DNA of 64,000 nucleotides from Escherichia phage KIT01: sequence record AP019521.1. The stretch is one strand, 5' to 3'. Under the pieces are notes generated by a model, which worked only from the letters and a program-made list of their open reading frames with translations, made no database searches and was not told where the DNA came from. Below, in pieces: positions 20,144 to 37,913 of the stretch (its first letter is position 1; each line of letters starts with the position of its first letter). Both the position numbers and the translations under genes were made by a program.

Positions 20144-20326
20144 TTATGCTTTCAACTCATTAAGATACTCAACCAAGGCCGCTTTAGAGTTAGCCAAATC
20201 TCGTTTACACTGCTCTATTCCGGAATATGAATAACCTTCGCAATATTCAACAGCCAGGTCATTGGATGCGTTTTCAATGTGCCGGGCGAGTTTGATAATT
20301 TTCTCAATCTGTTCAGTAGTTAACAT
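20144..20326 (-). CDS. hypothetical protein
   Basis: 60-aa ORF. Confidence 0.35.
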   Translation of the reverse strand: MLTTEQIEKIIKLARHIENASNDLAVEYCEGYSYSGIEQCKRDLANSKAALVEYLNELKA

Positions 20327-30760: not shown

Positions 30761-31720
30761 TTATTTTTCGAAAGGACGAATTAAATGATGGTTATCTTGG
30801 AAACGCTTGATGTAGTCGTTTTCACCTAAAGTCTTGTACATATTAACCACAGCTTGGTAGTTTTCCCAGGCGTACTCACGGAACCAACCTGAAGTGATTG
30901 AGGTACACACTTTCTCAAGGGCCATATAGAAACTTAATGATGGTGAAATATTGAAGTCATTAGGAACCTGTGAACGTTCTAGGGCAAGGACACAAGTTTC
31001 TTCATACACGCCAGCCAATTTAATAGCTTCAGGCAAAGCCTCGAACTTCTCACGAGAGGTCATGACTTCAGAACCTTCCTTCATATAAAAGGTATATGCA
31101 GGGCGCCCTGCCAATGCTACTGCTTCATGAATAGAGTCATGGTCCAGCGTATAAATGGTATCATTAAAGAATGATGATTTGTTTACGTCCAATTTAGGGT
31201 GGGAATAGCTCAACGTTTCTTTTTGACGCTGCAGCATAATTTCCTGGAGTTCTTCGTTCAGGGTGATACCTTTATTACGAAGGTATTTGATGTGGGACAT
31301 AGTTTTCAGGAAGAACGGAGTATTCTTCAGGAAACGATGAGAGGTTTTGATAGCCAGACAGATATCAGGCGTAGCCCAATAGAAACCTGTAAGACGGTCC
31401 TTTTTAATATGATTTTCGGCATATTTCAAAAGACGATAACTTGAGGTGAAATCTTCGTCTTGAAGCTCACCGGTGATTTCGCGTACATTAGTCAGAGCAC
31501 GAACGATATAAGCTTCAAAATAGGTTTCTTTACCATTATGCATACATTTGAAAGCCTGGACATCAGGATTGTCAACGTGTACATGGGCACCGAACATCCG
31601 AGCTTTAAAGTGATTCCATGAGCCTTGGTCGGCAATGAAATCCCAATCAGAATTTTCGATTTGCTTACTTTCAATCAGGCCAGCGTGGTGCAGTGCACGA
31701 GAACCAATAACTAACATCAT
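30761..31720 (-). CDS. hypothetical protein (319 aa)
   Basis: ATG 31720 after GAGGAAAA; N-terminal VIGSRALHHAGL...NSDWDFIA could be a divergent nucleotidyltransferase-like motif (uncertain). Confidence 0.5.
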   Translation of the reverse strand: MMLVIGSRALHHAGLIESKQIENSDWDFIADQGSWNHFKARMFGAHVHVDNPDVQAFKCMHNGKETYFEAYIVRALTNVREITGELQDEDFTSSYRLLKYAENHIKKDRLTGFYWATPDICLAIKTSHRFLKNTPFFLKTMSHIKYLRNKGITLNEELQEIMLQRQKETLSYSHPKLDVNKSSFFNDTIYTLDHDSIHEAVALAGRPAYTFYMKEGSEVMTSREKFEALPEAIKLAGVYEETCVLALERSQVPNDFNISPSLSFYMALEKVCTSITSGWFREYAWENYQAVVNMYKTLGENDYIKRFQDNHHLIRPFEK

Positions 31721-31739: not shown

Positions 31740-31979
31740 TTAAATTTCAGCAACGTAATCGTTATGCAATTCCCACATATCATCAGAATTATTCTTAATG
31801 ATAGGAATTATCTCATTAGAGATTTCTTCTGCATAAGGGTCATTGATACAGTGAGCATCTTCAAAACGAACACCGTAATCAGACTTCTTATAGGCAAAGC
31901 CATAAATCTTTTTAAACTTGGCACGGGTAATGCGTACCGGTTCATTAGACTTATCAGACAACGGAGAGTAATACCACAT
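31740..31979 (-). CDS. hypothetical protein
   Basis: 79-aa ORF. Confidence 0.4.
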   Translation of the reverse strand: MWYYSPLSDKSNEPVRITRAKFKKIYGFAYKKSDYGVRFEDAHCINDPYAEEISNEIIPIIKNNSDDMWELHNDYVAEI

Positions 31980-32022
31980 ATGTTCTCCTCATGTTTGTGT
32001 ATGGTAATAGTAACACGATTTT

Positions 32023-32352
32023 CTAGAGTTGTACATCACTTCTGCAATATTCTAAAAATAATTTATCATTGTCTACAGTATCCCAACGACGCCAAGATGG
32101 ATTCCAGACCAGAGCGTTGTCACCACAATCATTGAGCTTAAAATGGTCGTAGTACATAGCTATATGTCTAGTTTCGTCACCAGAGAACCCTAGTATAGGC
32201 TCACCGTGGGTGTGATACATATGATGGTGCATTGAGAGGTCGCATTTGTAAAACATCTCACGTTTACCACGAACGAACAAGAAAGCTTGCCCATTCATAT
32301 AGAATTCTTTATCTGTTTTCAAAAGATATTTGAATACTGAATCTTTGTGCAT
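32023..32352 (-). CDS. His-rich hypothetical protein (possible metal-binding)
   Basis: ATG 32352 after AGGAGG; contains MHHHMYHTHGE cluster. Confidence 0.45.
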   Translation of the reverse strand: MHKDSVFKYLLKTDKEFYMNGQAFLFVRGKREMFYKCDLSMHHHMYHTHGEPILGFSGDETRHIAMYYDHFKLNDCGDNALVWNPSWRRWDTVDNDKLFLEYCRSDVQL

Positions 32353-32382
32353 AAGTCCTCCTACCACATCCGTGTGGTTAAA

Positions 32383-32610
32383 TTATTTTCCTAACGAAAC
32401 ACGAGTAGGTTTTTTACCAAAATAGTCTTCATAAGAACCATCTAAACGTCCCGCTTTAGACCGACAATATGAATCGTACTTTTTATAATAAGTCATCTCA
32501 GTATTATAACGTGGGTGTCTATCAGCCATAATAATACTTAGTGGCCAACCTTTGGCATAATCGCGAAGACCATTTATTTTACGAATGTATCGTTTTTTCA
32601 ATTTTAGCAT
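32383..32610 (-). CDS. hypothetical basic protein
   Basis: 75-aa ORF. Confidence 0.4.
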   Translation of the reverse strand: MLKLKKRYIRKINGLRDYAKGWPLSIIMADRHPRYNTEMTYYKKYDSYCRSKAGRLDGSYEDYFGKKPTRVSLGK

Positions 32611-32828
32611 GAGCTTGGGTACCAGATTTTACCATCGGCCTGAGCAACGAAGGTGCGACCAGCTTCTTCACCATAACAAGAGCTATTCAGCCAATCTTCG
32701 AGACGAACTTCACCGTCATAATCGTCTAGCTCAACACCAAAATCCTGAGCAGAAGCCATATCTTTTACTTTCTTATACAGTGCGGCCAGTTCAAGTGCCG
32801 CTTTTTCTAATTCATTAATATCAGACAT
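32604..32828 (-). CDS. W-x-SS-C-tail paralog family member D
   Basis: 74 aa; helical N-terminus, C-terminus KIWYPSSC. Confidence 0.5.
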   Translation of the reverse strand: MSDINELEKAALELAALYKKVKDMASAQDFGVELDDYDGEVRLEDWLNSSCYGEEAGRTFVAQADGKIWYPSSC

Positions 32829-32839
32829 TTTTTATCACC

Positions 32840-33049
32840 TTAGCAAGACATAGAGGAGCTAAACCAGAAACCTTCACCTTCAGGAATACCGTAGTCATCA
32901 CGGGCCCATTCATAATCATCATATTCCGGACTAGAAGCTGGAATATATTCTTCGCCACCAGCGTGGAAGTGCTGACCTGTTTCGTCAGCCACGGCCTGGC
33001 CTTTACGTACTAATTCGCGGATTTGTTTTTCAATTTCATCAATAGTCAT
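32840..33049 (-). CDS. W-x-SSS-x-x-C-tail paralog family member C
   Basis: 69 aa; C-terminus FWFSSSMSC. Confidence 0.5.
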   Translation of the reverse strand: MTIDEIEKQIRELVRKGQAVADETGQHFHAGGEEYIPASSPEYDDYEWARDDYGIPEGEGFWFSSSMSC

Positions 33050-33058
33050 TTTATTTCC

Positions 33059-33340
33059 TTAGCATTCAGAAGAAGAGGACACCCAACCACCATTTTCTAG
33101 GCTGGTAGTGTAATCATGCTGGTTTACAATAGCGTACTGAGCTTCACCGTATTCTTCCCAGTGGGCAAGGTCGGCTTTCAGGGCGCCAGGAGAATAATAG
33201 TCACCGCCCATACCGCGAGCAGGGTATATATTAAAATGAGTCTCATATTTGTTTGCAATTTCCTCGGCACGACGAATAGCTTTATGGATATCATTTACTG
33301 CATCAGCCAGTTCTTTATTTTTACGGTAATCATTCATCAT
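33059..33340 (-). CDS. W-x-SSS-x-x-C-tail paralog family member B
   Basis: 93 aa; C-terminus GWVSSSSEC. Confidence 0.5.
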   Translation of the reverse strand: MMNDYRKNKELADAVNDIHKAIRRAEEIANKYETHFNIYPARGMGGDYYSPGALKADLAHWEEYGEAQYAIVNQHDYTTSLENGGWVSSSSEC

Positions 33341-33349
33341 AGCGTTTCC

Positions 33350-33640
33350 TTAGCACAATGCCGAAGAGGAGACCCAAGCACCAACGGTAACGACACCGTT
33401 TTCAACTTCACCACCGTTGTTTTCAATTTCATCTTTAAACCACTGGGAGCATTCGTAACCGACAGGATAATATGTACGACCCGAACCATAATCACCAGTG
33501 CCGAATTCAATACCATACTTATCGGCAATAGCTTCACATTCATGTTCGATGGTATTCACTTTATTCAGAAGAGCATAGATAGCCTTTTCTGCAGATTTCT
33601 CGTCGTTGTGTTCCGGGATTTCGATTTCAATTTTATTCAT
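33350..33640 (-). CDS. W-x-SSS-x-x-C-tail paralog family member A
   Basis: 96 aa; C-terminus AWVSSSALC; ATG overlaps upstream stop. Confidence 0.5.
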   Translation of the reverse strand: MNKIEIEIPEHNDEKSAEKAIYALLNKVNTIEHECEAIADKYGIEFGTGDYGSGRTYYPVGYECSQWFKDEIENNGGEVENGVVTVGAWVSSSALC

Positions 33641-33987
33641 GATTTACATTCCTTAATAAAGGTTTCAAGGTCATTACGTTTAGTTTGTTTTACATACTCA
33701 TTATAATTAGCCATCTCTAAAGCATATCTCTTTTTGCTTGGCTTGTTTATCCTATTGGTGTTGATAATATCCAAGACAAGAGGGATAAAGTATCCTATTA
33801 AAGCTGGAACCCAAATCCAGGCAGGGTTCAATTCAAATAGATTTTGTGTCGTATCATTAACGACTCCGCCAGCAATTAGTCCAACAAGCCCGGCAATCAT
33901 ACCAGTGACAAGTCCAGCGAATAAAGAAATAGCGATATCATAATCTGCTAATGCGTAACCAGGGTCGGTTTTACTAGGCTTATACAT
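33637..33987 (-). CDS. membrane protein
   Basis: ATG 33987 after AAGAGG; hydrophobic GLVTGMIAGLVGLIAGG and a second helix. Confidence 0.45.
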   Translation of the reverse strand: MYKPSKTDPGYALADYDIAISLFAGLVTGMIAGLVGLIAGGVVNDTTQNLFELNPAWIWVPALIGYFIPLVLDIINTNRINKPSKKRYALEMANYNEYVKQTKRNDLETFIKECKS

Positions 33988-34516
33988 TACGAACCTCTTT
34001 AGCGTATTCGCGGCATTCAGCAATAAAACGATTAAGCTTCCGTTGCTGTTTTCGAATCTCTGATGTATACTCATTGGCCAAAATAATAAGCTCATCTTTA
34101 TCGTAATTTTTAATATCAGAGTAAGATGGGCGGCGGTCGACCATACCAAAATGGTCACCATTTTCTAACATCAAATAGCATACTAAATGGTAATCATCGT
34201 CGGCATTAGTAAGCTGTTTATAATCGCTTGGTTCATTTAAAGAGTATACTGAATAGCGTAGCCCAGCGAACTCCACTCGTTGAATATCCAGATTTACGTC
34301 AATAATTTCTAAAGCTTCTGCAAAAGAAAGGTCCTCAGCCAAAGCAAAGATAAAAGGTAATTTGGTAGTATGCCCACGGCTACTTGTTCGACTTAAGAAA
34401 TCATTGGAATAACCTAAGTCTTGGCGAATTCTATAAAGAACTGAATTAGTTTCATGTGAAAGACCACTATGTTTAAACCAATCAATATTTGATATCAGGT
34501 CGTCATATAAACTCAT
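33980..34516 (-). CDS. hypothetical protein
   Basis: 178-aa ORF. Confidence 0.5.
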   Translation of the reverse strand: MSLYDDLISNIDWFKHSGLSHETNSVLYRIRQDLGYSNDFLSRTSSRGHTTKLPFIFALAEDLSFAEALEIIDVNLDIQRVEFAGLRYSVYSLNEPSDYKQLTNADDDYHLVCYLMLENGDHFGMVDRRPSYSDIKNYDKDELIILANEYTSEIRKQQRKLNRFIAECREYAKEVRNV

Positions 34517-34564: not shown

Positions 34565-35158
34565 TTACTTAAGTGAATTAATGTAGTCGTCGATATCGGC
34601 AGAAGTCGTATCCATTCCAACTTGCGGGCCTTTAAACGTTTCTACACGCAGTAGGGTGTCTTCAATATCAATCTTAGTCAGTGCAGCGATTTCAACAACA
34701 TCATCGGCAGTAGCAATACCAAGGGCAGCCATATTACGAGTTTCACGGATATACTCGAGCTTAACGGCCAGTTCCTGACGAGAGTCATCAAGTTCCTTAA
34801 CCTTCAGTTTAATTTCATTACGCATTTCGATATAATCATCAGCTTTCTTACGAAGCTGAGTAGCTGTACGACGATAAAGGAGGCCAAGTTTAGCATGTAC
34901 CTGGACATCAGCGCCTTCGGCAATCAGTTTACGAATTTCACGTTCTTTAGAAGCAGCGAGCTGGTCCTTTTCATTAGCCAATGCACGAATACGTTTTTCT
35001 TCATTCACGGACTTAACATGAGCAGTCTGGAGTTCAGTAATTTTATCAATCAGGGTAGAAGCAGCTTTGGTGTATTGGTCTTCGATTGACAGGTTCTGAG
35101 TCATCGCGGTGCCCAGTTTAGAACGAATGAATTCAACGATTTTCTTTAAAGTGTTCAT
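34565..35158 (-). CDS. coiled-coil protein (PspA/IM30-like architecture, tentative)
   Basis: 197 aa almost entirely heptad-like charged helix; GAAGGAAA RBS; first gene after a PeSL-like promoter. Confidence 0.45.
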
Positions 35159-35195: not shown

Positions 35196-35231
35196 GAGGA
35201 CATTATACCCTGTCCTCTGAGGGTTGTAAAC
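35196..35231 (-). promoter_or_regulatory. early promoter (PeSL-like)
   Basis: GTTTAC(35226-35231)-17 nt-GTATAA(35203-35208); GAGGACA/TGTCCTC arms. Confidence 0.5.
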
Positions 35232-37756: not shown

Positions 37757-37831
37757 TGGTATCCCGCCCTGGGATCGAACCAGGACCGCAAACTTAGAAG
37801 GATCGTATGCTATCCATTACACCAGCGGGAC
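37757..37831 (-). tRNA. tRNA-Arg (anticodon UCU)
   Basis: hand-folded cloverleaf: acceptor GTCCCGC/GCGGGAT, T-arm CCTGG-TTCGATC-CCAGG, anticodon loop CTTCTAA, encoded ACCA 3' end. Confidence 0.7.
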
Positions 37832-37836
37832 GTAGT

Positions 37837-37913
37837 TGGTGACCCAGACCAGATTTGAACTGGTAACCTTTCCCTTATGAGGGGACTGCTGCTAACCATT
37901 GAGCTACAGGGCC
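37837..37913 (-). tRNA. tRNA with CAU anticodon (Met, or Ile if lysidine-modified)
   Basis: hand-folded: T-arm ACCAG-TTCAAAT-CTGGT, anticodon loop CTCATAA, encoded CCA; 5 nt from tRNA-Arg. Confidence 0.65.

Follow-up and report, generated by a model that had tools for sequence, protein, structure and literature searches.

Escherichia phage KIT01 belongs to the Dhakavirus group of T4-like phages (JS98, IME08, Bp7), and a 64,000-nucleotide stretch of its sequence record AP019521.1 (the window) contains four consecutive small open reading frames (ORFs) on the minus strand whose products all end in a Trp- and Ser-rich tail with Cys as the last residue. This array raises the question of whether the ORFs, here named A to D, are genuine genes, and of what their common tail serves. 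Our analysis showed that A to D are paralogs whose tail is conserved at the amino acid level, and that genes of this type are linked, across unrelated phages, to a gene for a protein with a nucleotidyltransferase (NTase) fold, here named BIG. These results suggest that the small genes and the nucleotidyltransferase gene constitute an enzyme-and-partner module, undescribed in the literature that we found.

The ORF list and the sequence confirmed the four ORFs of 69 to 96 aa with Cys-ended Trp/Ser tails that the original prediction had described. Paralog A (33350-33640, minus strand as are the others; 96 aa) ends in GAWVSSSALC, with its tail codons at 33353-33376. Paralog B (33059-33340, 93 aa) ends in GGWVSSSSEC (tail codons 33062-33085) and paralog C (32840-33049, 69 aa) in GFWFSSSMSC (tail codons 32843-32866). 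Paralog D (32604-32828, 74 aa) is a divergent subtype that ends in GKIWYPSSC. The tail consensus G-x-W-x-[S/P/A]-S-S-x-x-C before the stop is matched exactly by A, B and C. D has a shorter W-x-x-S-S-C variant (WYPSSC, 32607-32624) and carries the motif once more in its interior, as DWLNSSCYGE (WLNSSC at 32676-32693); D-type orthologues with both the terminal and the internal motif occur in many T4-like loci. The terminal Cys codon is followed directly by a TAA stop in all four ORFs, each has a Shine-Dalgarno-like GGA or GGTG immediately after the previous stop, and the start of A overlaps the upstream gene by ATGA. Because only six of the 197 window ORFs of at least 50 aa end in Cys, four of these six being the neighbours A to D, and because A to D are the sole window ORFs that match the pattern W.{1,2}SS.{0,3}C$, the clustering of Cys tails is not attributable to chance.

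The relationship among the four proteins extends beyond the tail. Pairwise BLASTP connected A, B and C (A-B, 4e-5; A-C, 2e-6; B-C, 8e-7), with D giving weak pairwise similarity. All four matched the profile phrog_899 of PHROGs v4, with matches that reached the C-terminal end of the profile (E-values of 9e-23 for A, 7e-20 for B, 2e-13 for C and 4e-10 for D), and a hidden Markov model (HMM) of the family (E-values of 1e-13 to 1e-29; 8.5e-29 for C and 1.3e-13 for D). The tail similarity survived multiple alignment with MAFFT, in which F46, W89, S92, S93 and C96 were invariant. The family had not been recognised at first reading, and the profile searches with each paralog bore this out: phrog_899, labelled 'unknown function', is its only catalogue entry and carries neither a tail description nor a link to a partner gene. 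A to D had no significant match in Pfam, NCBIfam or PADLOC, and sequence, profile and fold searches of PDB with the small proteins returned chance helical or designed-protein matches, none of them significant. A literature search on the phrog_899 family and on DUF7277/DUF7275, the two domains of BIG described below, found nothing relevant. Judged by their sequences, A to D are genuine members of a large, apparently phage-restricted family of small acidic proteins. A candidate fifth copy in the window at 20144-20326 (weak HMM match, E 0.03) was rejected, as it has no tail.

An exhaustive profile search recovered 494 representative clusters of this family at 50% identity (E <=1e-3), and the matches nearly always reached the last residue; 140 of the 148 family representatives listed end in Cys. 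The consensus of a 114-sequence alignment was EAExIADExG[LV]xFxF..AYGMGGTYYP..(acidic)..W..G-x-W-x-S-S-S-x-x-C. Members are laid out as an N-terminal amphipathic helix, a short beta region that usually carries the YGMGGTYYP loop, an acidic linker and the Cys-ended tail. The loop reads YGSGRTYYP in A and RGMGGDYYSP in B, is degenerate in C (AGGEEYIP) and is missing from D. In this alignment, the C-terminal tail is the most conserved feature of the family: the Trp, one Ser and the Cys were conserved in 100% of the sequences and the next Ser in 98%, and the first Ser position is Ser in 67% and otherwise Pro or Ala. The same tail was found in other T4-like genomes and in unrelated phage lineages. 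A tblastn search with B found it in 283 phage records, orthologues of A are numbered P0001-P0009 in our set, and a plasmid search with the small protein gave no match. Homologues in named phages of Escherichia, Klebsiella, Enterobacter, Citrobacter, Serratia, Erwinia, Aeromonas, Acinetobacter, Pseudomonas and Ralstonia are all annotated as 'hypothetical'.

The family model missed or barely detected several tail-bearing proteins, namely an E-type (MSRELDCA...SWVSSSYEC), the D-type and proteins of 145-155 aa that end in VDWDSSSMYC or HAWCSSSMIC and occupy the same position upstream of BIG. A 144-aa type in the same arrays ends in HGWISSSICW, with Cys as the penultimate residue followed by Trp (loci L087 4595-5035, L089 4615-5055, L110 4248-4682 and L119 4457-4897), and a few family members that end in CS or CN are further exceptions to the terminal-Cys rule.

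The junction TGC-TAA-GG(A/T) is repeated between A and B, B and C, and C and D, as would be expected if the ORFs were unexpressed and their common tail were a repeated DNA element such as a duplicated junction. However, both TCN and AGY codons occur at the invariant Ser positions of 155 distinct tails, and both TGC and TGT at the Cys; selection has therefore acted on the amino acids and not on a DNA repeat. Hundreds of orthologue clusters, well-placed Shine-Dalgarno sites and a confident AlphaFold2 model also speak against a non-genic origin, which we regard as effectively refuted. The motif is also repeated: one or more additional W-x(1-2)-SS units precede the tail in 35 of 140 members (RWESSSEGWESSSEGWVSSSSQC is one case), compared with 1.6 +/- 1.3 in composition-preserving shuffles, so that such units are ~20 times commoner than chance. 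A short recognition motif would be expected to recur in this way, more so than a purely structural element.

The isoelectric points (pI) of the A to D proteins are 4.2-5.0, and the AlphaFold2 model of A (pLDDT 91) has a long helix at residues 14-42 (~29 residues) packed on a small sheet, in agreement with the helical and acidic N-terminal halves noted originally. Trp89 is part of a strand modelled with high confidence, and the chain closes in a short turn that is modelled less well: the mean confidence of the last six residues (SSSALC) was 76 vs ~96, as expected for an exposed end.

The tail had been proposed to be a modification, lipidation or recognition tag. Lipidation found no support: the proteins have neither a signal peptide nor a lipobox, the neighbourhood contains no lipid-transfer gene, and the Cys of A to D, which resembles that of CaaX boxes in following small residues near the C-terminus, is the last residue and not at -4, hence no CaaX box. 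A modification or recognition tag is plausible, with indirect support from the conservation of the tail, its internal recurrence, the dissimilar protein bodies and the coupling to a nucleotidyltransferase described below. One specific form of modification is suggested by the S-x-x-C-COOH spacing of the tail, which equals that of the epidermin Ser19...Cys22 pair that forms aminovinyl-cysteine (AviCys): the proteins could be precursors like those of ribosomally synthesised and post-translationally modified peptides, with a Ser/Cys-rich C-terminal core that is dehydrated and cyclised into, for example, a lanthionine or AviCys ring. Several precursor-like paralogs do adjoin one conserved enzyme. 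However, that enzyme has a nucleotidyltransferase fold, and the common neighbours include no LanB, LanM, LanKC, LanD-like, radical-SAM, protease or exporter gene; nor were prenyl, dehydratase, cyclase or decarboxylase genes found among the conserved neighbours. Unlike lanthipeptide precursors with a leader and a disordered core, the small proteins are predicted to be well-folded domains of 70-100 aa, and the W-x-x-S-S-C tails of the D-type lack the Ser at -3. We consider a precursor role very improbable.

The gene that accompanies the family was identified by sampling from both sides. On the small-gene side, 42 IMG/VR loci were fetched through the YGMGGTY motif alone, all of their ORFs were clustered, and counts were made over 45 loci. 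BIG (~300-340 aa) was located on the same strand, directly downstream of the small genes, in 42 of these 45 loci, and the other three are contigs that end too early; one of the 42 has a further small-gene copy beyond BIG. No other family was common across lineages in these loci, the next most widespread being confined to T4-like phages. An apparent 'third' widespread neighbour cluster proved to be an artefact of antisense ORFs inside BIG. On the enzyme side, 80 loci were fetched through BIG alone, and small genes were called by the family HMM and then by a regular expression for the tail. Small genes were present in 71 of the 80 loci by HMM and in 75 when tail matches were included. All 148 HMM matches were on the BIG strand, 146 of them upstream of BIG and 143 ended by Cys; the median gap between small gene and BIG was 377 bp, with 1-6 small-gene copies per locus.

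This linkage is found on the backbones of Tevenvirinae, Twarogvirinae, Otagovirus, Phapecoctavirus and Menderavirus, of 355-389 kb jumbo phages and of contigs of 40-120 kb, and in named phages such as Acinetobacter phage fHyAci03, Pseudomonas phage phiPsa347 (four copies) and E. coli phage ESCO13 (three copies). In the Stenotrophomonas phage Yut3 (L132 5165-5742), the pairing is reversed, with the Cys-tailed genes downstream of the nucleotidyltransferase gene; one of the Yut3 tails, WMPSSQEGC, is longer by one residue. In the window, BIG lies ~0.9 kb downstream of D on the same (minus) strand, a conserved enzyme gene that the original prediction had missed.

BIG (30761-31720, minus strand) encodes a protein of 319 aa, counted from MMLVIGS, that matches phrog_2141 and consists of an N-terminal DUF7277 and a C-terminal DUF7275 domain (96.9 and 259 bits, respectively, vs a cut-off of 27). 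An hmmscan of BIG at E up to 1 returned these two domains and no match to DUF1814/AbiEii, and searches of NCBIfam and PADLOC with BIG gave no match. The BIG family comprises >2000 clusters at 90% identity and occurs in at least 733 phage records; a plasmid search returned three weak matches. An alignment of 40 sequences with 43-75% identity to the BIG of the window contained 57 invariant columns. The conserved residues include D25-x-D27, E69, K125, H128, K139, T140, R165, E168, H174, D193-H194-D195 and H198; further invariant stretches are YEExCVLALER and KVCTSITSGWFRE, and His, Asp, Glu, Arg and Cys residues are numerous among the invariant positions.

The hG[GS]...[DE]x[DE] motif of Pol-beta-type nucleotidyltransferases is present in BIG, with G6 and S7 near-invariant. 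Fold comparison revealed a bi-lobed NTase fold, with the highest score for the MenT1 toxin (10.0), followed by ANT(2'') and TglT/MenT3 (8.5 each), MenT4 (7.7), the TM1012 NTase (7.6) and LnuA (7.1); poly(A) and CCA-adding enzymes matched more weakly, and the helical, His/Asp-rich DUF7275 domain had no clear structural match. On the basis of these fold matches and the GS...DxD motif, we assign BIG to the Pol-beta-type nucleotidyltransferases, and its conserved residues and fold make it look like an active enzyme. MenT1, MenT3 and MenT4 transfer a nucleoside monophosphate (NMP) to the 3'-OH of tRNA, and ANT(2'') and LnuA transfer one to a sugar hydroxyl of an antibiotic. The latter two share only 7-12% sequence identity with BIG, act on small molecules and have neither a DUF7275 domain nor protein partners. 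A reading of the SHR...H stretch of BIG as a HEPN motif was rejected because the second His is not conserved and is replaced by F in the window.

Shorter BIG homologues of ~250-266 aa were found in Streptomyces, Gordonia and Mycobacterium phages and in Vibrio Schizotequatrovirus (L126 3878-4633, L127 3818-4600, L133 3812-4612 and L128 4001-4762). The GS...DxD motif is kept in long and short forms; the short forms lack approximately residues 35-100, a beta insert of ~65 residues that includes E69, and this candidate third carboxylate is invariant in the long forms only. The short-form gene of Annadreamy lies ~1.2 kb downstream of an RNA ligase gene, and that of Yvonnetastic lies ~1.5 kb upstream of a tRNA cluster.

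That MenT1 is the best structural match of BIG, followed by MenT3 and MenT4, brings to mind a toxin-antitoxin pair. MenA1 is a 68-aa helical protein that is encoded upstream of MenT1 and blocks the MenT1 active site (PMC10435456), and thus offers a precedent for a small upstream protein acting on such an enzyme. By analogy, BIG could be a toxic tRNA-modifying nucleotidyltransferase that the small proteins neutralise through their N-terminal helix, the tail being irrelevant. The gene order, with the small gene first and the NTase gene second, is that of menA1-menT1, and the ~29-residue helix of the small proteins recalls the long central helix of MenA1. However, a helix-based interface should keep the helix constant, and in the small proteins it is instead the helix that varies and the tail that is invariant; for this reason we disfavour the antitoxin explanation. 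From one to six different 'antitoxins' per enzyme would be unusual. The enzyme persists without small genes in several lineages, and a BIG homologue, but no small gene, was found in the one record of prophage origin that we examined. The named carriers are T4-like and other large phages, in which self-neutralisation is of no obvious use, whereas MenA1-MenT1 belongs to the bacterial chromosome of M. tuberculosis. The PDB searches detected no sequence or structural similarity between the small proteins and MenA1, which has no counterpart to the arrays of 1-6 partners with an invariant Cys-ended tail; BIG differs from MenT1 in that Pfam does not place it in AbiEii/DUF1814, the defining family of MenT toxins, in its use of the classical GS...DxD and in its additional, highly conserved DUF7275 domain. 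Taken together, a MenAT1-style pair appears quite improbable.

We instead favour, tentatively and at slightly less than an even chance, the reading that the small proteins are cognate partners of BIG and that their tail is an interface that enters the active or metal site, either as an NMP acceptor or as a gating pseudo-substrate. The small proteins and BIG would then form a conserved two-component module. We propose that the tail engages BIG because it is the sole element common to the divergent paralogs and is sometimes repeated inside them. The Trp would serve as an anchor, and the Ser hydroxyls and the thiol and carboxylate of the terminal Cys would enter the catalytic or metal centre; the tail would act there as a true acceptor, through O-nucleotidylylation of Ser, or as a pseudo-substrate that gates BIG. 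The variable bodies and multiple copies would supply different partners or specificities. The nearest analogue of the acceptor version is the Type VII HEPN-MNT system (HepT-MntA), in which a minimal Pol-beta-type NTase covalently modifies a Tyr hydroxyl of the product of the adjacent gene. The present case differs from that system in that the small partners are not of the HEPN type, that BIG has an R-x(4-6)-H-like stretch whose His is not conserved (F in the window), and that the proposed acceptor is a Ser in the C-terminal tail. It is also conceivable, though unlikely, that W-x-SSS-x-x-Cys-COOH is a portable C-terminal tag, in some proteins repeated: BIG would recognise it and covalently attach one or more nucleotides to its Ser or Cys, and the variable bodies of the resulting conjugates would be aimed at different host targets.

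Several observations weigh against a partnership with BIG through the tail. In the window, three unrelated ORFs (31740-32610, all on the minus strand) part the array from BIG. They encode proteins of 75 aa (32383-32610; pI 10.0, phrog_7065, unknown function), 114 aa (32023-32367) and 79 aa (31740-31979), the latter two ORFs matching phrog_9796 and phrog_3723, both of unknown function. These lineage-specific ORFs have no tail and are therefore probably outside the module; they are missing from most other lineages, where the small genes abut BIG. In about five of the 80 loci, BIG is full-length but no gene within 6 kb bears the tail; these are L068, which has an apparent deletion relative to L066, and the lineage of L105, L106, L109 and L117, in which such genes are missing altogether. 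No Cys-tailed neighbours were found beside the BIG homologues of the Streptomyces, Gordonia and Mycobacterium phages and of Vibrio Schizotequatrovirus. The predicted fold of the small proteins is a compact domain with the Trp in its core, so that the conservation of the tail may be partly structural, and the single invariant Cys could serve metal binding or oligomerisation instead. Finally, the PDB profile and fold searches described above produced neither a significant match for the small proteins nor a likeness to MenA1.

As BIG homologues occur without small genes, the enzyme must be able to work without the small proteins, and these limits of the linkage indicate that it is older and more widely distributed than they are. 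In phages of Proteobacteria, the small proteins seem to have been added to the long form of BIG. It is a speculation, based on four short-form lineages, that the insert of the long form is the docking site of the small proteins. The ATG start of the ORF at 32383-32610 is contained in the final codons of D (tcATGcTAA), suggesting translational coupling; this ORF is present in IME08 and missing from several other relatives.

The same limits, together with the location of the array, are compatible with independent functions. The small proteins could be host-directed inhibitors, such as acidic nucleic-acid mimics and anti-defence or host-takeover factors, that merely share an early accessory cassette with BIG, the tail serving for folding, oligomerisation, or metal or host binding. 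They are small and acidic (pI as given above) and lie in the hypervariable e-to-tRNA region of a T4-like genome; their copy number varies, as in the fifth copy of relatives that the window lacks; their orthologues have diverged more rapidly than BIG; some lineages have BIG alone; and their Trp is predicted to lie in the folded core. Hitch-hiking nevertheless leaves unexplained why adjacency and strand are kept across unrelated phages that share no other neighbour, and why tail-bearing proteins that the family model detects poorly stand at the same place beside BIG. The small proteins also had no match to the known anti-defence or defence-related models in PADLOC. An anti-defence role of the small proteins is possible, and we rate the inhibitor explanation as a whole as somewhat unlikely.

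Comparison of the arrays among T4-like phages clarified how they have evolved. Genomes of the JS98/IME08/Bp7 type are 91-96% identical to the window at 32300-34200, and in IME08 the counterparts of the array are orf120-123, all annotated as 'hypothetical', two with noted similarity to RB69 ORF136c and ORF137c. An E-type gene lies between B and C in IME08, JS98, VR5 and others; it encodes a 65-aa protein, MSRELDCAIRTA...TSWVSSSYEC (L001 7759-7962, which is IME08 orf121, and L046 4457-4660). The KIT01 window has no E-type copy, and B and C are only 9 bp apart (33049-33059); because of this missing copy, relatives align to the array in two to three pieces with 87-95% coverage.

Paralog types A, B, C, D and E recur in varying order across several T4-like contig groups. 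Since each type has orthologues in several groups, the array is old and did not arise through a recent duplication burst. Identity to relatives ranged over 39-98% for A and 32-97% for C, vs 62-99% for BIG. The rapid tandem diversification first suggested for the array thus holds only in part: the small-gene orthologues diverge faster than BIG, yet the types themselves are old, and among close relatives D keeps 96-99% identity.

IME08 orf120 (L001 7305-7694) is annotated as 129 aa, vs a conserved D-type protein of 74 aa that starts at an internal Met; the annotated N-terminal extension runs into the end of the C gene and seems to result from a wrongly called start. In one T4-like contig (L066 5353-5595), the D-type copy has lost its terminal Cys (WYTSGNIWGD, vs DGSVWYTSSC in relatives such as L069 5340-5573), and in the related L068 the small genes are gone and the nucleotidyltransferase gene is intact. 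The Cys loss and the gene loss are signs of ongoing small-gene decay in some strains.

If the linkage is functional, these genes represent a widespread, unstudied phage module, with the enzyme in at least 733 sequenced phages and the small family in ~500 clusters, and with the logic of one highly conserved nucleotidyltransferase and a variable set of small proteins that bear a common Cys-ended tag. The proposed partnership would, if true, give a function to two Pfam domains of unknown function and one PHROG, and a new mode of NTase gating or a new protein modification would be possible; were the tag version true, it would be a new phage post-translational tagging system in hundreds of genomes of Proteobacteria-infecting phages. 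MenT-like enzymes have the 3' end of tRNA as their target, and tRNA is also what many bacterial defences attack, so that the module may bear on the control or protection of translation by large phages. Further members can be sought by a simple sequence rule, an ORF ending in W-x-SSS-x-x-C.

The array is located in a variable stretch between lysozyme e/nudE and the tRNA genes, in which all genes are on the minus strand. A strong sigma-70-like promoter match (TTTACA-17-TATAAT, 11/12) is present at 35202-35230 on the minus strand, and no terminator-like site was predicted on that strand from this match through the array to BIG. The match is a possible early promoter for the whole gene run, which would then be co-transcribed.

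Between this match and the array, a gene at 34565-35158 (minus strand) encodes a 197-aa homologue of T4 e.6 that is very well conserved with T4, has the same N-terminus and is predicted to be largely helical or coiled-coil. Besides the array and the nucleotidyltransferase gene, it is among the few genes of the stretch matched in most of the T4-like relatives compared, and its family is one of two gene families found in 12 loci. Neither the small family nor the BIG family was found in the e.2-e.8 region or the first 50 kb of T4. T4 gp49.3 (L134 47823-48131) gave a weak HMM match (E 0.009); it has a similar helix and a 'GIDF' strand, ends in SSWWCEK without the tail, and may be a remote relative or a chance match.

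In five GenBank records (MT150133, MW679410, MW250787, MZ571829 and MK295203), homologues of both families are labelled 'tail completion protein', 'prohead assembly scaffold protein' or 'major capsid protein'; these labels are unsupported and look like shifted or propagated annotation errors. The tRNA genes of the window, at 37757-37913 on the minus strand, are two only, Arg-TCT and Met-CAT, and IME08 is annotated with three at this place (Arg, Asn and Met).

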